Assembly: GCA_046583315.1 (NCBI GenBank)
Contig: JAYGCN010000214.1
Coordinates: 1-34,228 of the forward strand
Direction: 5' to 3'
DNA: 34,228 nt
From: Candidatus Hydrogenedentota bacterium
GTDB taxonomy: Bacteria > Hydrogenedentota > Hydrogenedentia > Hydrogenedentales > GCA-2746185
Each line of letters opens with the position of its first letter. Position 1 is the stretch's first letter. A model generated the notes under the pieces. That model worked only from the letters and a program-made list of their open reading frames with translations. It was not told the DNA's origin and searched no databases. Below, one piece after another: positions 2,548-32,369 of the stretch. Made by a program: the position numbers and the translations under genes.

Positions 2548-3555
2548 TTAATGTAAATCTTCCAGCACAACAGCGAATTCGGCCTGTTGATGTCGCGAGA
2601 ACGAGTCCGGCCTCAAACCCGACAGTCGCGCCAGAAACGCAGCCCAGTCGCGCTCGGATTCGTCGAATAACTTCTCGAATGCTTCAAGCCCCGAATCATA
2701 AGTCCGTGCGCCAGACAAGGCCGCGTTATTGAGCGGGTTCGGAAGCTTCAGATCGACCTGCAGTGCCGTCAGTATCCGCTCTTTTTCGGCGCGTTTCTCT
2801 TCATCGGATACTTCCAATTGATAGAGGTCGCTCAGTTCCGTAAACGCCCTCGCGAAGCCTTCGGATCGTTTTTTGCGAAGCTCCAGCCAACGCGCGTAGT
2901 CGTCCGCCGCACCATGGTTCTCATCCAGATACTCCATCGCCATGGTTTCCCCGACGAACTGCGCGAGACTCTCATTAAAGTACGACTGATTCTTTACGTA
3001 AATAGTCGCATGTAAGGATTCATGCAGGATCGTTTCCGCTAGCAACGCTTCAGCCAATTCCCCGCGCCCAAGCATCGTCGAAAAAATCGGATCCTTGAAC
3101 CAGCCCAGCGTCGAATACGCCGATGCCCCACGAACATGCACATCCCATCCCTCGCCGCGAAGCTTTTCGGCATGCGACTCGGCACGCTCCCGTTTGAACC
3201 AGCCCAAATAACTGAAGCTGCCTACAATCGGAAATTTCCAGGTCTTCGGCATCAAACTGAATTCGGGACACGCCGTCACTACCCACACCACCGCATCGCC
3301 ATCAACCGCTACATATTTCTCGTAACTCTTCGTCGCGTTGAGACCTTGCTTTTCCGCATAAGCCTTTATCGCAGGAACCTGTCGGAGCAGTTCAGTCGTT
3401 TCAGTCGATGTCTCTGGATCGGCAATCACCTTCGACAATGGTCGGGCAGAAGTTTGCACCTTCAACTGACCTGCACCCGCCTGTGATAGAAACGACACGG
3501 TTGTACACCCCGAAAGTGTTAGCGCCAGCATTCCCAAAAGCGCGCGCGTCAACAA
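2548..3555 (-). CDS. Putative zinc aminopeptidase lipoprotein (DUF2265-like)
   Basis: Lipobox LTLSGC; AYSTLGWFKDP; HESLH zinc motif followed by FNESLA (gluzincin-like). Confidence 0.85.
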   Translation of the reverse strand: MLTRALLGMLALTLSGCTTVSFLSQAGAGQLKVQTSARPLSKVIADPETSTETTELLRQVPAIKAYAEKQGLNATKSYEKYVAVDGDAVVWVVTACPEFSLMPKTWKFPIVGSFSYLGWFKRERAESHAEKLRGEGWDVHVRGASAYSTLGWFKDPIFSTMLGRGELAEALLAETILHESLHATIYVKNQSYFNESLAQFVGETMAMEYLDENHGAADDYARWLELRKKRSEGFARAFTELSDLYQLEVSDEEKRAEKERILTALQVDLKLPNPLNNAALSGARTYDSGLEAFEKLFDESERDWAAFLARLSGLRPDSFSRHQQAEFAVVLEDLH

Positions 3556-3558
3556 ACC

Positions 3559-4995
3559 CTAGGCCAATATGTCATGCACGACGCGCCCGTGCACATCCGT
3601 CAGTCGGAAATCACGACCCTGGAACCGGTGCGTGAAGCGTTTGTGGTCGATGCCGAGCTGGTGCAGCAGCGTTGCGTGAAAATCATGCACGTGCATCTTA
3701 TTCACTTCTGCCGCGTAGCCCAGTTCATCGGTCTCGCCATACGTAATGCCCGGTTTGATGCCCCCGCCAGCCATCCACAGCGAGAACCCCTTGATATGGT
3801 GATCACGCCCGTCGCCCTGCGCCATCGGCGTACGCCCGAACTCACCGCCCCAGATAACCAGCGTATCATCCAACATGCCGCGCTGTTTCAGGTCCATCAC
3901 CAACGCCGCCGAAGCCTGATCCACCAACTTACTCGCAATCTGAATATCCCCGCGCAATTTACTGTGATGATCCCAACCGCGGTGATACAACTGCGTGAAC
4001 CGTACTCCCCGTTCGGCCAAGCGGCGTGCCAACAAACAATTCGACGCGAAGGAACCATCCAAATTCCCGTCCACGCCATACATGTCAAGAATATGCTTAG
4101 GCTCCCCGGAGACATCCGTCAACTCCGGCACCGAAGTCTGCATTTTGAAGGCCATCTCGTATTGACTGATGCGGGTCGCGATTTCGGGGTCATCAACCAG
4201 CGTATCGAAGTCTGCGTTCAGTGACGCGATCGTATCGATTACATCGCGTTGACGTCTCGCATCAATCCCCTCAGGATTCCCGAGATACAATACGGGATCG
4301 CCAGAGGATTGGAACTGCACGCCCTGGTATTTGCTCGAAAGAAATCCCGCGTGCCACTGTCGTGCGGCAATCGGCTGACCCTGACCGCCCCCTTTCGACG
4401 TAAGCACGATGAATCCCGGCAAATTATCCGCGCCGTTTCCGAGTCCATAGGTCAGCCACGCGCCCATGCTGGGTCGTCCAGAAATCGAGGTCCCCGTATT
4501 CATAAACGTATGCGCGGGATCGTGATTAATCTGCTCGGTAATCATCGACCGAACAATGCAAATATCATCGGCAATCCGGTGTGTATGCGGCAAAATACTG
4601 CTGATTTCCTGACCCGACTGTCCATATTTCGCGAAGGGAAATACCGGACCCATGCAATTCAGTTTCGCCCCCTGCAACTGCGCGATGGGTTGGCCTTTGG
4701 TAAACGATTCCGGCATCGGTTTACCGTCCTGCTTCGCCAACTCCGGTTTATAATCAAAGGTCTCCAAGTGCGAAGGCCCCCCGGCCATATACAGGAAGAT
4801 TACGCGTTTGGCTTTCGGCGCAAAATGAAGCGGATTGATCGACCCGAAATTCACACCGGGTTGGGACGCCGCGAATGCACGATTGCCACCCAACATCGAT
4901 GTCAACGCAATCGCACCCAGTCCCTTCATCCCCTGTCCGAGAAACTCCCGGCGGGTCCGTTGCAATGCACTGTCATAAAAAGGATTCATCAACAA
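3559..4995 (-). CDS. DUF1501 domain protein with Tat-like N-terminus
   Basis: TRREFL; AKRVIFLYMAGGPSHLETFDYKP; GWDHH; WGGEFGRTP; GRDHH; RLTDVHG motifs. Confidence 0.92.
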   Translation of the reverse strand: MLMNPFYDSALQRTRREFLGQGMKGLGAIALTSMLGGNRAFAASQPGVNFGSINPLHFAPKAKRVIFLYMAGGPSHLETFDYKPELAKQDGKPMPESFTKGQPIAQLQGAKLNCMGPVFPFAKYGQSGQEISSILPHTHRIADDICIVRSMITEQINHDPAHTFMNTGTSISGRPSMGAWLTYGLGNGADNLPGFIVLTSKGGGQGQPIAARQWHAGFLSSKYQGVQFQSSGDPVLYLGNPEGIDARRQRDVIDTIASLNADFDTLVDDPEIATRISQYEMAFKMQTSVPELTDVSGEPKHILDMYGVDGNLDGSFASNCLLARRLAERGVRFTQLYHRGWDHHSKLRGDIQIASKLVDQASAALVMDLKQRGMLDDTLVIWGGEFGRTPMAQGDGRDHHIKGFSLWMAGGGIKPGITYGETDELGYAAEVNKMHVHDFHATLLHQLGIDHKRFTHRFQGRDFRLTDVHGRVVHDILA

Positions 4996-24249: not shown

Positions 24250-25761
24250 TTGACTATTCGATTGGTATCGAGCGGAACGATAGTGCGTGTCGTATTAGCG
24301 AGTTTGGTGCTGATTGCCCAAGCCATTTCGGCTCAACCGTCAGCAAAGGTGCTGGCTTCGGGCGATTTACCGGACACTCCAGTCGGACAACGCGCGGAGG
24401 CGTTGATTGAGGCCTTCAACACCGGCGGTCTGGACGTGTTGGAAGCCTTTGTGGCATCGAACATGGAACCCGCGGCGCTGCGTCAACGTGGCACGGCGCG
24501 CTCGGTGGCATCGTATTGGGCCGGCGTGTTTGCGGAGGCCGGACCCCTCACCTTTCATTCAAAGGAAGACGTGACGCTAGGCGGACGCACTCGGGAGGTC
24601 CTCTGGTTCCAGGCGGATCGTACGCGCGCATGGATGGGCATCGCCCTGCGTGTCGAAGAGAATTCTCCCCATCAACTCACGGGCTACAGCGTCATCCGTG
24701 GACTCCGACCAAGCACGGCCACCCCGCTGGACGTCTCGGAAGATGAATTGCCCGCCTACCTCAAGGCCTACCTCACATCCATCGCCGAACACGACCGCTT
24801 TTCCGGCAACGTACTCATCGCGAAAAACGACATCATCATTTTCGAAGGAAGCTACGGCGACGTGAAACCCGACTCGCGATTCCGTTTGGCCTCCGTCACC
24901 AAAATGTTCACCGGCATCGCCATCGCGCAACTCGCCGAAGCAGGCAAACTCAATTTCGACGACCCCATCAGCAAACACATCCCCGAATACCCCAAGCATG
25001 TCGCCGACAAAGTCACCATCCACCAGCTCCTCACGCACCAGTCCGGCATCGAACTCGACGACTACGGCCGCTACAACCGAGAAATCGAAAAAGCGAAGTG
25101 CATCGAAGAACTCCTGACGATTCAACTCAAATACCTAGAACACCTCAATCGCGGCAACTACGAAAATTTCGAGCCCCTCGGCAGTTACGACTACACCAAC
25201 GAAGGCATCGACCTGCTCGGCGTCATCATCGAACGCGCCAGCGGAAAAAACTGGTCCAAGTACATCCAGAAAAACATCTTTGCGAAAGCAGGCATGAAAT
25301 ACACAGGCGTGGACACATTAAAAGGCGACCCCGGCCTCGTCACGGGATACACCGGCACCAATCGCGCAGGCATGTTCCTCGCCGAACGCCGCGCGGTCAA
25401 TGGCGAAAAAGAGAACAGCGCACTACGCCCCGCCGGCAGCGGTTGGTCCACAACGCACGATATGTATGCATTCATCAATGCACTCAACATGAACAAACTG
25501 CTCTCCCCGGAAATGACGAAAACCGTGCTCAGCCCGCACATCAACACCGGCATCGTGGACTACGAATTTTACGGCTACACCTTCGATATCGACCTCGGCG
25601 ACACCCTGCCCATCTTCGGCCACCGAGGCGGTGCCCCCGGAATCAGCACCGCCGTCCGCCACTACCCTGACATCGGCTACACCGTCATCGTACTCTCCAA
25701 CTACAGCCGCGCAGGCGACGTCGCGCTCAACCACATCGAAGACATTCTCGCGGCGTTCTAA
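24250..25761 (+). CDS. Serine hydrolase (beta-lactamase class C/PBP-like) with extra N-terminal domain
   Basis: FRLASVTK (SxxK), LLTHQSG, YDYTN (YxN), GHRGG, VIVLSN; signal peptide; GAGGAGG SD before TTG. Confidence 0.9.
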   Translation: MTIRLVSSGTIVRVVLASLVLIAQAISAQPSAKVLASGDLPDTPVGQRAEALIEAFNTGGLDVLEAFVASNMEPAALRQRGTARSVASYWAGVFAEAGPLTFHSKEDVTLGGRTREVLWFQADRTRAWMGIALRVEENSPHQLTGYSVIRGLRPSTATPLDVSEDELPAYLKAYLTSIAEHDRFSGNVLIAKNDIIIFEGSYGDVKPDSRFRLASVTKMFTGIAIAQLAEAGKLNFDDPISKHIPEYPKHVADKVTIHQLLTHQSGIELDDYGRYNREIEKAKCIEELLTIQLKYLEHLNRGNYENFEPLGSYDYTNEGIDLLGVIIERASGKNWSKYIQKNIFAKAGMKYTGVDTLKGDPGLVTGYTGTNRAGMFLAERRAVNGEKENSALRPAGSGWSTTHDMYAFINALNMNKLLSPEMTKTVLSPHINTGIVDYEFYGYTFDIDLGDTLPIFGHRGGAPGISTAVRHYPDIGYTVIVLSNYSRAGDVALNHIEDILAAF

Positions 25762-27248
25762 TCGGAATCTGCGCCAAAGAGATCCTGAATGCCTTTTTGC
25801 AAGCTCTCGGTTTCAGCGATGACGGGCGTTCCAGAGGCTTTGAGTCCTTCGAAATCATCGGCCCACACGCCGTCGCCATCAAACAAATAAAACGAGTCCC
25901 AATCAATCGGGCCGAGGTGTTTGGTTGAAACGTGTTCTTCGATCCAAATTCCCAATACTTTCTCTTCATCCCAGTAATGGACAACACGTTTGTCATCCAA
26001 TAGGCTCGTCTTCCAACGACTCTTCTTGTCGGTGGCGACCATGTTGAACCATACCGCGTAGATCTGGATGTCTTCGTCGGGATATTTATCGAGAATATTT
26101 AGTTGGACCCAACGGGCCCCCTTAACGCAGGCCGGTCACGTCGGTGAAAACAGCAACAACAGTCGACGTTTCCCCTTATCCCCGTTGAACTGCGCCTTCA
26201 GCGCATCAACACCTTCAAATGGTTTCAATGTAGTCTCCTCGACGGATTCTTCTTCGGTAGTCGGAGCTACAGCCTGCGGAGTCGCCTGTGCAACGTCAAA
26301 GCTCCCTTTATAGCCGGCACGTTCCACCGCCGCCAACAGTGCCATCTCCATCGGGCGGTCATCGGCAACAAACTGCACCGTCGCCAACCCACCTTCGTAA
26401 CTCACCTCAACGCCCGTGACGCCAATGACCTCTGCCAAGGTGTTATTCAACGTCACCTCGCATCCCTCGCAGCTCATGCCCGTCACATAGATGTCTACGG
26501 ACTCCTCCGCAACGAATTCGCCACTCGGTGTGGCAGGTTCTACCGCAAAGGCATCCACATACAACGGAAACGCCGCAAAGATCGCAACGCCCACCGTCGA
26601 AACCCAGAGCAATGACCGATTGAAGCGCTTAAATTTCACATTGTGCGCATCGCGAGCATAAGAAAAATAAAATCCAACCGACAACATCACAGCAGCCACA
26701 ACAAGAAAGAAGGGCCGAGTCGTTTCAAACATCGCAGCCGCGCCTCCAGCCGACACCCCAACAGCAACAAACGTCAACGGAATCCAGCAACAGGCGGAAG
26801 CCAATATCGCCGCCACCAACGATCCGCCGGTAGCCACGATTCCGACCTTCGAGTTCGCCTCAACGACAACCTCATTCGTCGAGCAACAGTCCTCCGTATC
26901 TAAACAGCAATCAACGGACTCCGAAATCGACCCCGTCGCGCTTTCCACCGCCATACCTGTCAAAGCGGTCGCAAGCATCTCACTCGAAGGCAATCCCTGC
27001 CCGTCATACGTGCGACACGAATATCCGAAACCGGTCCGCGTACGCGCTTCCGGTTCAATATCCAATCCGTCCACTCGAATCGAAGGCGAACCTAGAAAGC
27101 GCAGCGCGTTCGCGTCCTCCGGGCCATGCACCTCTACCTCTTCAATAGTGACATCCAACTCAAGCGCGGCAACCATCCGTTCCACATACCTCACCGCAGG
27201 CGGATGATTCGGGCACCCCTCAAAATAAAAAATTTCTACGCGTTTCAT
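25758..27248 (-). CDS. Probable selenoprotein: Trx-like + MerT + HMA(MerP-like) + Trx-like(UxxC) fusion, UGA at 26138-26136
   Basis: ORFs 26136..27266 and 25758..26042 are in frame across a single TGA: LLLLFSPT-U-PACVKGARWVQ. Domains: YFEGCPNH/FLGSPSIRVDG/SCRTY; SACCWIPL plus three TM segments; GMSCEGC. GAGGAG SD before ATG 27248; 496 aa, Sec at codon 371. Confidence 0.88.
26105..26119 (-). promoter_or_regulatory. Candidate SECIS hairpin
   Basis: GGGCCC-GTT-GGGTCC; loop begins with G at +23 after the UGA. Confidence 0.45.
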
Positions 27249-27295
27249 AGGTAATTCTCCTCGCATTCACGAATATGGATATCGCATCAAATTGT

Positions 27296-27327
27296 ACTAT
27301 ACACCTTGAACCCAAGTGAAAGGTCAA
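27296..27327 (-). promoter_or_regulatory. MerR-type promoter/operator of the MerT fusion gene
   Basis: Minus strand TTGACC (27327-27322), 20 bp spacer, TATAGT (27301-27296); dyad ACCTTgaacccaagtgaAAGGT at 27303-27324. Confidence 0.85.
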
Positions 27328-27363: not shown

Positions 27364-28176
27364 TCATGACCTGTGCAGTAGATAGGGGTTCTTTTTGATA
27401 CTGTAGTCGTTACCCATCTTGCCGTGACCAATGACGACATCGGTGGGATACACATCGGAACGGACACCATTTAGCGGCAACCAGGTACGACCCTTTTTGA
27501 CGACGAGCACCAGACCGCGTGTGTCGCCCATGGCGGTAAAGCCCTTGGAGGTGAGTCCACGAAACGGCGTTTGGCCGAATCGTTTTTCAATGTCTGAGGC
27601 TACCTTGGGCACATCAGGCACCACGAGTCCAATTTCGCTCGTGAACAATATTTGACCCGGCCCGAACGGTTCAGACGAGCCGTTATAGAGATCATGATGC
27701 GCGATGAATTCCAGAATGTTGCCCACCGGATCGAGATAGAAAATCGAATGCGCATTCCAGTGGCTGAAATCACGAATCTTGCCACCCCTTGGGTTCACGT
27801 CGAGTACAGGGCATCGGGGTTCCAACCATTCGAGCGAGGCGTTCAACTGATTCTCCGGGATCGTAAAGGCGAAATGATAAAATGGATTCTCCCATTTGGC
27901 ATCGGGCGAAAACTCGACAACGGTCGGTCCTACCGTTATGCGCAACAGATCTTTCGAGACTCGCTCCACCGGCAGTTCGAGCACGTCGCGATAAAATGGT
28001 TCCTGCGCGTCCAAGTCGTTTGAACACAGGCGTAGTTTTTCCAATAACACAGGGCTGTCCGGAGCGACCTCTGCAGCCTGGACCCTGCCAGCCAACAACA
28101 TCTGAGGCGCGTGCATCGCAGCAATAATCGAAGCGGCAGAACCACGGATAAATTCACGACGGTCGGGTAGTTTCAT
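27364..28176 (-). CDS. VOC/glyoxalase-family protein with Tat signal
   Basis: DRREFI Tat motif; FYRDVLEL, FYHFAFTIP, WNAHSIFYLDPVGNILEFIA VOC motifs. Confidence 0.85.
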   Translation of the reverse strand: MKLPDRREFIRGSAASIIAAMHAPQMLLAGRVQAAEVAPDSPVLLEKLRLCSNDLDAQEPFYRDVLELPVERVSKDLLRITVGPTVVEFSPDAKWENPFYHFAFTIPENQLNASLEWLEPRCPVLDVNPRGGKIRDFSHWNAHSIFYLDPVGNILEFIAHHDLYNGSSEPFGPGQILFTSEIGLVVPDVPKVASDIEKRFGQTPFRGLTSKGFTAMGDTRGLVLVVKKGRTWLPLNGVRSDVYPTDVVIGHGKMGNDYSIKKNPYLLHRS

Positions 28177-28520
28177 AATTAATTCCTTACTCCACGTTTT
28201 GCGTTTGCCAGGTCGCCATGTCAATATATTCTCGCCATTCGACAATCTTAGCATCTTTCATCTAGACGGCCCCTAGACAAGGCAATACGACCTCCCTACC
28301 GTTCATGACAAAGCGATCAATGCTGTCGGCGAAAACCGTGTCACCCGACTCGGCGATGAAATCGTGAATTACTTGAACGCCTTGACTTAGGGGCATTTTC
28401 CTTGTTGGTACTTGTATTTTGTCAAGTGTTCCATTGACATATGAGCGATTACCTATTGCAACGAAAAATGAAGTTTAGAAATACGATTTACAATTATTCT
28501 TAAAATGCGATAAACCTCTC

Positions 28521-31514: not shown

Positions 31515-31940
31515 TTAATCGTCCGTACTACGAACGACCGAACGACTCCGTTTGAGATCGCTCCGACGATGTTTGTTGTCCATTCGCTTGGCTTTGGCAC
31601 CCGCAGATGGTCGTGATTTGCGGCGACTTTTCGGAGCTTTCTCAGCTTCCTGAATGAGCGCGATAAGACGTTCAAGGGCTTCCTTGCGATTCGCCGACTG
31701 ACTACGCTTGTTTGTGGCGGCTATCACGAGGACACCCTCGTTGGTCAATCGAGAACCCGCGATACTCCTCAACCGTCGTCGCACATCATTATGCAGCGAC
31801 GGTGAATGGGCCACATCGAAGCGAAGTTGTACCCCGGACGAAGTCTTGTTGACATGCTGACCACCCGGGCCAGACGCCCGAATGAAATGCTCTTCGATCT
31901 CGTCGTCGGATAACGATATTTTTTCGGAGACACGTATCAT
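31515..31940 (-). CDS. arfB: Alternative ribosome rescue peptidyl-tRNA hydrolase ArfB
   Basis: FIRASGPGGQHVNKTSSGVQLRF, RSQSANR, basic C-terminal tail. Confidence 0.95.
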   Translation of the reverse strand: MIRVSEKISLSDDEIEEHFIRASGPGGQHVNKTSSGVQLRFDVAHSPSLHNDVRRRLRSIAGSRLTNEGVLVIAATNKRSQSANRKEALERLIALIQEAEKAPKSRRKSRPSAGAKAKRMDNKHRRSDLKRSRSVVRSTDD

Positions 31941-31943
31941 GTT

Positions 31944-32369
31944 CTATGACGATCCTGGCTGCGCAGATTCTTCCGTAAGCGTTTCCAGTACTTCACAATG
32001 CTCCTTATCCCCGGAAGCCCGACAGGTCTTCAAAAAATCATTCAGGTGGCGATCGATTTCCTTCAGATCCTTGAGGCGCGCGCGTACTTCCCCGAGTCGG
32101 TGCTCAATGAGATGCTCGACTTCTTCGCACGGCGTGGTCACCCCATCGCGAACGCCCAGCAGACGCGCAATGTCTTCAAGACTGAATCCCGCCGACTGTG
32201 CAATACGAATAAACCGCACGCGCTCGACCGCATCCGGGCCATACACGCGATAATTGCCCTCCGTGCGCCCCGAAGGCACCAGCAAATTCGCTCGCTCGTA
32301 GTACCGCAACGTCGAGGTTGGCACATCCACTTCCTGCGCCAGACGCCCTATGGTTTGCTCAATCGCCAT
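31944..32369 (-). CDS. Heavy-metal-responsive MerR-family regulator
   Basis: TIGRLA...STLRYYERANLL.P.GRTEGNYRVY; GFSLEDI; Cys81, Cys116, Cys125 (C-x34-C-x8-C) counted from MAIEQT. Confidence 0.93.
   Translation of the reverse strand: MAIEQTIGRLAQEVDVPTSTLRYYERANLLVPSGRTEGNYRVYGPDAVERVRFIRIAQSAGFSLEDIARLLGVRDGVTTPCEEVEHLIEHRLGEVRARLKDLKEIDRHLNDFLKTCRASGDKEHCEVLETLTEESAQPGSS

Follow-up and report, generated by a model that had tools for sequence, protein, structure and literature searches.

A Candidate Selenoprotein Joining a MerT-Type Channel to a Thioredoxin-Fold UxxC Domain in a Candidatus Hydrogenedentota Bacterium

Introduction

Contig JAYGCN010000214.1 of a Candidatus Hydrogenedentota bacterium (assembly GCA_046583315.1), of which positions 1 to 34,228 of the forward strand were analysed as a whole and are referred to below as the window, carries a long reading frame that is broken by a single TGA codon. 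The locus raises the question of whether this frame encodes one protein and, if so, what a protein that is composed in this way could do. We show that it almost certainly encodes one selenocysteine (Sec, U) protein, in which four modules that bear cysteine or Sec are strung around a MerT-type channel, and that the family of its last domain is recurrently linked with merT, HMA domains and MerR-type regulators as well as, in two cases, with a true merA. Based on sequence comparison and predicted structures, we consider it about an even chance (roughly 50%) that this last domain, which has a UxxC motif, would act as the selenolate/thiolate entry module of a soft-metal relay on the MerT-type channel.

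Reading Frame and Decoding of the UGA Codon

The coding sequence (25758..27248, minus strand) consists of 496 codons and a TAG, and runs from the ATG at 27248-27246 to the TAG at 25758-25760 with its sole in-frame TGA at 26136-26138, in the context SPT-U-PAC. An earlier description that was made from the DNA letters alone, hereafter the sequence-only reading, had proposed one frame of 496 codons that is broken only by this TGA, and translation with TGA read as U confirmed it. Its coordinates correspond to the exact stop and the likely start, with the correction that the gene lies on the minus strand, and all of the motifs that it quoted were found in the translation, i.e., FEGCPNH, GSPSIRVDG, YSCR, SACCW with three hydrophobic stretches, GMSCEGC and LLLLFSPT-U-PACVKGARW. 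Another in-frame ATG occurs upstream at 27266, from which 502 residues are read (P0001, with U at codon 377). The 496-codon frame from the ATG at 27248 is the most likely product because a GAGGAG stands at 27257-27262, 8 nt 5' of this ATG, and because the N-termini of the homologues begin MKIQILYFEGCPNH. Residue numbers given here are those of P0001, from which six must be subtracted for the likely start (U377 becomes U371). With translation table 11, the listing of open reading frames (ORFs) cuts the frame in two, 26136..27266 (376 aa) and 25758..26042 (94 aa), and the public protein sets store the two halves apart as P0002 and P0250. The TGA is not an assembly slip, since the stretch 25901-26206, with the TGA in it, recurs with zero differences in contig X7, which comes from an independent run on a marine metagenome. 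No RNA data set was listed among the public runs that contain the sequence.

Comparative evidence makes it almost certain that the UGA (26136-26138, minus strand; UxxC at 26127-26138) is read as Sec. As the sequence-only reading had anticipated, Cys was found at the UGA column of homologues: P0057, P0060, P0074 and P0076, all of which lack an HMA domain, run in one unbroken frame through SP[RL]CPAC into the same C-terminal domain, and the standalone relatives with Cys at this column include P0093. Three proteins that matched the whole protein end exactly at SPT, i.e., the window's own P0002, P0003 (...LLLLLSPT) and P0019 (...LLILSPT). A DNA scan of one genome per species, which used the pattern [DTS]D[PKR]RVxH[FYL]WD and thus excluded the Sec column, yielded 68 loci with the motif visible in 67. 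At these reference-genome loci, which belong to several phyla, the Sec column held TGA in 63 of 67 cases and Cys in four (L075, L082, L084 and L088). TGA was also present at all seven metagenome loci, two pairs of which are duplicates, and in genome G113. When the whole protein and its C-terminal part were searched in order and phylum samples of 41 and 135 genomes, the C-terminal domain was found only in the bacterium's own genome and in G113. The 125 codons 3' of the TGA are conserved as one domain, a point on which the sequence-only reading had staked its proposal: at E ≤ 1e-3, the 163-residue C-terminal piece matched 874 cluster representatives, of which 288 remained at E ≤ 1e-10, and the residues that precede the TGA (RLLLLFS) form a beta-strand that is integral to the predicted C-terminal fold.

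Downstream of the UGA, the hairpin GGGCCC-GUU-GGGUCC (26105..26119, minus strand; +20 to +34 from the U of the UGA) resembles a selenocysteine insertion sequence (SECIS) element, with 6 bp and the loop GUU. It begins 17 nt 3' of the UGA and has a free energy of -8.5 kcal/mol by itself. Bacterial SECIS criteria, as in bSECISearch, comprise a stem-loop shortly downstream of the UGA and a G or U in the apical loop, and this hairpin agrees with them. When 52 Sec members, which are related sequences, were aligned without gaps, 93.9% of the cells were paired versus 88.6% in the shuffles, and none of 500 shuffles reached the covariation score; in a control with a slid partner, pairing was at most 58.7%. 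In the second pair, 24:36, both partners are third codon bases, one from a Gly codon and the other from a Val codon, and the pair occurs as CG in 33 sequences, UA in 12, GC in four and UG in three, with none of the 52 unpaired. Since these are synonymous third codon positions that covary, their pairing cannot be explained by selection on the protein. Another subgroup, with 15 Sec loci, forms a different hairpin of 7-8 bp at this position, which is missing from two of the three Cys forms in that subgroup. The Rfam search across the gene returned no match to a SECIS or any other family.

The genome encodes the complete Sec machinery, with selA (576 bits), selB (329), selD (268) and tRNA-Sec (78) all above their cut-offs and with selA adjoining selB. 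The selD region (G000:C299:30461-32287) is an open frame of 771 aa with additional matches to pyridine nucleotide-disulfide oxidoreductases and looks like a fused NADH-dehydrogenase-like/SelD protein; the tRNA-Sec gene lies about 4 kb from it, at G000:C299:36302-36393. A different genetic code, in which TGA would be a sense codon throughout, was considered and dropped because a second TGA in the G113 frame, right after ...LLEH where the relatives end, is read as a stop. The Cys column, the conservation of the TGA, the covariation of the hairpin and the Sec machinery thus uphold the proposal of the sequence-only reading that one protein is made through the UGA.

Domain Architecture

The whole-protein AlphaFold model contains four folded units that are separated by low-confidence linkers, and these units, together with the Pfam and NCBIfam matches, bear out the four domains and their order as they had been described. 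The first is a thioredoxin-like domain of the DF family (26964..27239, minus strand; residues 10-101) with a CPNH motif (C18) and an SCR motif (C84), which is predicted to be cytoplasmic. It matched NF049942, 'DF family (seleno)protein', with 107.1 bits against a cut-off of 70 over positions 1-96 of the 96 in the profile (110.9 bits in the genome search), and it was modelled at residues 8-103 with a predicted local distance difference test (pLDDT) score of 93-98. Both C18 and C84 were conserved in 89 of 89 aligned rows. The suggestion that this domain is DUF2703-like did not hold: PF10865 scored 14.2 bits against a threshold of 23.6 (E 0.047), and the domain is a member of NF049942 instead. 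Pfam Thioredoxin_3 gave a weak match at residues 9-67. Between this domain and the first membrane helix, there is a Cys-rich linker, DCCLDTEDCC (26883..26912, minus strand; residues 119-128), which lies in a low-confidence region of the model and in which C121 was conserved in 60 and C120 in 40 of the 89 rows.

The MerT-like channel (26547..26843, minus strand) has three membrane helices, at about 140-168, 173-204 and 210-240, on which hydropathy and the AlphaFold model agree, and a CC pair in helix 1, C159 and C160, that was conserved in all 89 rows. The assignment to MerT can therefore be kept in part. The helices and the Cys pair are present as described, but the scores fell under the curated cut-offs, with 25.3 bits for Pfam MerT (PF02411, residues 148-199; cut-off 32.9) and 83 bits for the MerTP fusion model NF033556 (cut-off 180); a homologue, P0269, passes the Pfam cut-off with 46.4 bits. 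The loop between helices 2 and 3 (26616-26660, minus strand; residues 203-217), YARDAHNVKFKRFNR, has five K/R versus one D/E and zero Cys. It is followed by an HMA domain of the MerP/CopZ type (26307..26492, minus strand; residues 259-320), whose GMSCEGC motif had been recognised in the sequence-only reading and whose identity was supported by a PF00403 match of 35.5 bits against a threshold of 24.8. In the model, it comprises residues 255-322 in a beta-alpha-beta-beta-alpha-beta arrangement with a pLDDT of 89-95, and it is predicted to be periplasmic.

The search with the whole protein found 91 proteins. The final 30 residues mark 84 of these as natural DF-MerT-HMA proteins that do not have the C-terminal domain. 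For the topology, we infer that the DF domain lies inside and that the HMA and UxxC domains are periplasmic. This N-in/C-out orientation follows from the positive-inside loop between helices 2 and 3 and from the accepted topology of MerT. In standalone relatives, the UxxC domain is preceded by a hydrophobic, signal-like N-terminal segment, and together with the loop these segments predict that the flanking domains are on opposite faces of the membrane, as had been proposed.

The C-Terminal Domain Family

The last module is a thioredoxin-fold domain (25761..26249, minus strand; residues 340-502) with the SPT-U-PAC motif, and it is predicted to be periplasmic. Its full-length relatives are about 190 aa long and show Cys at the UGA column and an N-terminal hydrophobic segment, and many matches of 110-125 aa begin just past the column (MCVxGAxW...), which by their sequence are the remainder of Sec forms after gene calling. 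The members of the clusters are named 'hypothetical protein' only. With the last 163 residues, neither Pfam nor the PDB sequences gave a match at E ≤ 10, and NCBIfam gave none at E ≤ 0.01. Moreover, none of 64 family members matched Pfam Redoxin, AhpC-TSA, Thioredoxin_2/_8, GSHPx or T4_deiodinase at E ≤ 0.01, and one of the 64 matched TIGR00411 weakly (E 0.0033). Judging from these comparisons, the domain represents a large, mostly-Sec family for which there is no Pfam or NCBIfam model.

Because the whole-protein model had no alignment depth in this part, the fold was taken from a separate AlphaFold2 model that was based on the 64-sequence alignment. This model has a pLDDT of 95.8 and a predicted template modelling score of 0.91, and it shows a thioredoxin fold with UxxC at the N-terminus of helix 1, where U38 of the piece stands between the strand 28-34 and the helix 39-53. 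The final thioredoxin-like domain that the sequence-only reading had recognised is thus predicted to have a TlpA/CcmG/DsbE-like fold. In the VIA comparison, the matches were DsbE (Z 12.4, root-mean-square deviation (rmsd) 3.4 Å over 124 residues), the DipZ C-domain (11.8), ResA (11.2), CcmG (11.0) and TlpA (9.9), while S. mansoni glutathione peroxidase (GPx; Z 10.0), the mouse deiodinase 3 core (Z 10.0) and Sco (Z 9.8) were in the same range. Foldseek agreed with VIA on TlpA-like extracytoplasmic thioredoxin folds and also returned poplar GPx5 at E 8.3e-5. Identity to the structural matches was 10-18%. The nearest ESM-Atlas clusters were named 'hypothetical protein' and had no Pfam match (0.96-0.97), and the TlpA and AhpC clusters followed at 0.88-0.89. 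The near-invariant columns of alignment A2 were C41, W67, D74, D86, R88, W93, D94, W117, D118 and W129; C41, the resolving Cys at +3, was present in at least 90% of the 64 sequences. Thioredoxin-type oxidoreductases have a conserved cis-proline loop that faces the active site. No Pro was found among the near-invariant columns, and W117-D118 precede the strand where the cis-Pro would stand.

Genomic Context

For the context, the closest ORF on either side was scanned at 71 loci, which gave 128 ORFs in total. Pfam MerT was found on the nearest upstream ORF in seven loci (L033, L035, L049, L059, L080, L081 and L099). A hidden Markov model of MerT, which was built from eight segments, was applied to those 65 loci whose upstream DNA amounts to 600 nt or more. 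It added six (L032, L061, L076, L085, L102 and L105), which brings the loci with a same-strand MerT-like frame no further than 1.3 kb upstream to 13 of 65; seven of the eight segments came from loci that are among these 13. L061 also has a MerR-type frame upstream. When 69 domain rows were placed in a quick maximum-likelihood tree, those linked to MerT were scattered, with the starred branches requiring at least three changes, and none of 500 shuffles was as clustered. The window domain was the sister of the L099 domain (Shimodaira-Hasegawa-like approximate likelihood ratio test, SH-aLRT, 99). A gene for a DsbD_TM protein was next door in one of the 71 loci, just downstream in L057.

The links with merA are of two kinds. 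In L078, the domain gene lies between an ArsR/SmtB regulator and a MerA gene (3111-4565) that scores 520.6 bits against the cut-off of 454.45. In P0165 (608 aa), the domain itself is joined by a linker of about 30 residues to a MerA core that scores 516.7 bits and has SCCAG as its last residues, and it sits in the usual position of NmerA, the N-terminal HMA domain of mercuric reductase that has a role in metal hand-off. HMA domains were fused to the domain in six of the 31 longer relatives scanned (P0097, P0150, P0181, P0203, P0236 and P0241).

Two further observations concern this context. In L076, a contig of a Nitrospinae bacterium, the MerT-HMA gene upstream of the Sec-domain gene has two in-frame TGAs in its metal motif, GMV-U-GA-U-P (UxxU); read accordingly, this locus would hold three selenocysteines in two adjacent metal-handling genes. 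P0097, P0102, P0132, P0182 and P0203 are long, soluble-looking proteins with one or two copies of the UxxC/CxxC domain, some of them with an HMA domain in addition. Among them, P0097 matched the DF model NF049942 with 40.0 bits, below the cut-off of 70, and P0102, P0182 and P0203 appear by eye to have a DF-like C-terminal segment. P0097, P0102, P0182 and P0203 end in a Cys-Cys tail that is reminiscent of the C-terminal pair of MerA.

A promoter-like site, TTGACC-20 nt-TATAGT (27296..27327, minus strand), precedes the window gene, and its spacer contains the dyad ACCTT-N12-AAGGT (27303-27324), which a pattern search found once in the window versus 0.05 expected. A spacer of 19-20 nt that contains a dyad is a hallmark of MerR-type activation. 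A gene for a MerR-family metal regulator (31944..32369, minus strand; Pfam MerR_1 and MerR-DNA-bind) lies 4.7 kb from the gene. Its best NCBIfam match was MerR TIGR02051, with 118 bits under a cut-off of 150.85, and its three Cys residues have spacings of 35 and 9, an arrangement like those of MerR and PbrR. The regulator is 69% identical to the one that stands directly ahead of the split version of the system in L099, a 3.25-Mb metagenome contig that has the same parts as separate genes. In L099, the MerR-type gene (843-1259) comes first and is followed by a promoter (1300-1340; TTGACC-20 nt-TAGAGT with the dyad ACCTTG-N10-CAAGGT), the DF-MerT-HMA gene (1383-2408; DF 108.9 bits) and then the separate Sec-domain gene, whose product has an N-terminal hydrophobic, signal-like segment and is 60% identical to the window domain. 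The target genes in the window and in L099 have a common layout, i.e., TTGACC-20 nt-TA(T/G)AGT with an ACCTT...AAGGT dyad. Judging from these sites, the regulator at 31944-32369 likely controls the window gene via the long-spacer promoter.

Of the other genes in the window, the one immediately downstream of the regulator on the same strand (31515-31940, minus strand) encodes an RF-1 domain protein of 141 aa that is peptidyl-tRNA hydrolase/ArfB-like (Pfam, 88 bits). The gene just upstream of the coding sequence (27364-28254, minus strand; 296 aa) had no Pfam match and weak FosB/FosA-like NCBIfam matches (E 1e-3).

Discussion

If the UxxC domain is the entry module of a soft-metal relay, it would capture Hg(II) or another soft, thiophilic metal ion on the outer side of the membrane. 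From UxxC, the ion would move by ligand exchange to the CxxC of the HMA domain, next to C159 and C160 in membrane helix 1 and last to the predicted cytoplasmic DCC...DCC linker and the DF domain (C18, C84). We infer the binding of metal by the U/C pair, the direction of the transfer and the identity of the metal from the sequences, and the mer-type links would point to Hg(II). Under this reading, when Sec-tRNA is scarce, translation would stop at the UGA and yield a DF-MerT-HMA protein like the common three-domain relatives; such a shorter isoform under low selenium is plausible from the architecture of these relatives.

The explanation that competes best is that the UxxC domain is a TlpA/CcmG-like reductase that would keep the CxxC of HMA and the CC of MerT reduced in the oxidising periplasm and be recharged by a CcdA/DsbD-type protein, with no metal binding. 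TlpA keeps Sco and CoxB reduced in this manner. The predicted fold favours the reductase, since the best structural matches (DsbE, the DipZ C-domain, ResA, CcmG and TlpA) are DsbD/CcdA-dependent reductases, and Sec stands at the N-terminal, nucleophilic position of UxxC at the start of helix 1. The DsbD_TM gene of L057 also speaks for it, but a DsbD-type neighbour was seen in just that one of the 71 loci; in P0117 and P0130, the domain is fused with a multi-pass membrane region that has PC motifs, but this region had no Pfam match. Additionally, the cis-proline of thioredoxin-type enzymes is not among the conserved columns of the family. Hand-off is preferred over a pure reductase because the domain is fused 1:1, and sometimes in two copies, with other hand-off modules (HMA and DF), and because in P0165 it takes the place of NmerA on a cytoplasmic enzyme, the MerA core; these arrangements fit hand-off better. 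We therefore regard a pure reductase as rather unlikely, although the two roles are compatible.

A selenol peroxidase or antioxidant module of the GPx, peroxiredoxin or deiodinase kind, which would guard the thiols of the transporter or act on a small oxidant, is improbable. GPx structures were among the top Foldseek and VIA matches, as was the deiodinase 3 core (Z 10.0). The T-U-P triad presumably resembles the active site of deiodinases, and we take the conserved Trp-Asp before the fourth strand to be comparable with the Trp-Asn of GPx. Against this, the resolving Cys at +3 is nearly invariant, as in CxxC proteins, none of the 64 members matched GSHPx, AhpC-TSA or T4_deiodinase, and the context of merT, HMA, MerR and merA has no obvious link to peroxide. 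Finally, the idea that the TGA acts as a normal stop codon or arose by nonsense mutation, so that the protein ends at residue 376 and the downstream 94-125 codons are a remnant or a separate small gene, is very improbable: table 11 calling and the public sets give that very split and no Rfam family covers the region, but such a stop would sever the thioredoxin fold between its first strand and the active-site helix, the TGA is conserved in 63 of 67 and seven of seven loci from several phyla, and there are the covariation of the hairpin at synonymous sites, the full Sec machinery and the identical TGA in the independent X7 contig.

Several observations weigh against the hand-off reading and the Sec decoding that it includes. 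The nearest solved folds are thiol-disulfide reductases (DsbE, ResA, CcmG, DipZ-C and TlpA) and not metal chaperones. Selenolate binds Hg(II) very tightly, as is established chemistry, and onward transfer from it could for this reason be hard. A merT gene lies upstream in just 13 of 65 loci, and at most loci the neighbouring genes are unrelated ones, such as those for alanine racemase/hydrolase, PilM and SpoU. In the bacterium's own genome, no MerA-like ORF is above the cut-off of 454.45 bits; the best one (384.8 bits; G000:C308, L106:458-2934), which comes after a gene for a multi-pass membrane protein, has a CxxxxC active site and no C-terminal Cys pair, and imported Hg(II) would consequently lack an obvious sink. 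The loop between helices 2 and 3 has a C-x5-C pair (at least two Cys) in 84 of 88 homologues, and this pair, which we take to be the second, cytoplasmic Cys pair that is a feature of Tn501/Tn21 MerT, is absent from the window protein; this looks like a deletion of about 10 residues that is specific to the window protein. At the RNA level, the local minimum-energy fold of the window sequence is a structure other than the SECIS-like hairpin, and that hairpin has only 6 bp.

The entry-module reading can also be set against the known systems. The window protein shares with MerTP fusions, or with MerT plus MerP (NF033556; PF02411 and PF00403), the three helices, the CC in helix 1 and an outer HMA domain with GMxCxxC. 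It differs from them in scoring below the curated cut-offs, in its additional N-terminal DF and C-terminal UxxC domains and in lacking the Cys pair of the loop between helices 2 and 3. The nearby MerR-type regulator and long-spacer promoter are a further likeness, but the window gene is not in a mer operon and its genome has no merA above the cut-off. With the TlpA, ResA, CcmG and DsbE proteins, the domain shares the fold (Z 9.9-12.4, rmsd 2.7-3.5 Å over 118-132 residues), the xxC at the start of helix 1 and, as the signal-like N-termini of the standalone forms suggest, an extracytoplasmic location. In contrast to them, it has 10-18% identity, Sec in place of the first Cys in most family members and no conserved cis-Pro that could be seen, and the family is found beside merT, HMA and merA rather than cytochrome c maturation genes. 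The likeness to NmerA lies in P0165, in which the domain is tethered in that place by a linker to a MerA core with a C-terminal CC pair; the fold is, however, thioredoxin-like and not ferredoxin-like, the motif in most members is UxxC and not CxxC, and the window domain is predicted to be outside the membrane.

Selenoproteins that are related to mercury transport have been catalogued before. The MerT/CopZ fusion-like selenoprotein NF045683 is likewise a MerT-type selenoprotein with an HMA-like domain, but the window protein scored 56.2 bits against its cut-off of 375. The accessible parts of PMC9312934 and PMC13188914 list selenoprotein forms of MerT, HMA-type binders (UxxU) and P-type ATPases as well as 'putative mercuric transport protein' selenoproteins. 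Such selenoproteins are also mentioned in the accessible part of the preprint 10.1101/2022.07.06.499078, with a CU motif in MerT selenoproteins, and a Sec-related motif C/SxxU is given for the MerT family in that of PMC13188914. The window protein differs from the MerT selenoproteins listed there, since its MerT and HMA modules use Cys and its Sec is in a separate, appended thioredoxin-fold domain; among the entries in the accessible parts of these three sources, there is no MerT with Sec in such a domain. 'Hypothetical protein DF' (NF049942) is listed in the same part of PMC13188914; compared with the DF family (seleno)proteins, the DF domain of the window uses Cys instead of Sec and forms the N-terminal module of a membrane protein. 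None of the UxxC entries with a Pfam or NCBIfam tag that are listed in the part of PMC13188914 at hand matches the window domain, in a comparison from which 'Thiol-disulfide isomerase-like protein' and 'UGC-containing TlpA' (cd02966; PMC13188914) and the 'Redoxin family protein' MBA3499694.1 (PMC9312934) were left aside. The part of the review on mer gene diversity that was available (PMC8261052) makes no mention of such a component, and the literature search, which did not extend to subscription papers and supplements, found no description of the domain family or of the fusion. By sequence, the protein therefore represents a new architecture and an apparently undescribed family within the thioredoxin-fold UxxC selenoproteins and the MerT/MerP-type relays, with the cd02966-tagged entries and MBA3499694.1 standing outside the comparison.

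Conclusions

In public protein sets, the family is split at the UGA and is covered by no Pfam or NCBIfam model, so annotation misses it. Mercury toxicity is commonly ascribed in part to the very tight binding of mercury to selenols, and a widespread family that puts Sec into the path of MerT/MerA-type metal traffic would for this reason be unexpected in both the mercury and the selenium fields. The four-domain fusion of the window and its split counterpart in L099 are a ready pair for probing the role of the selenium domain. With somewhat less confidence than would make it an even bet, we tentatively propose that this mostly-Sec thioredoxin-fold family may be a missing component of bacterial mercury and soft-metal handling, i.e., a selenolate acceptor that would work with MerT and HMA outside the membrane, substitute for NmerA on some MerA proteins and, in the window, be fused to the transporter itself. 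If this is true, metal uptake in this organism would be selenium-dependent and would have a built-in short isoform that is sensitive to selenium, and the family would be a new component of mer-type systems in Acidobacteriota, Chloroflexota, Gemmatimonadota and Nitrospinota as well as in the marine bacterium of the window.

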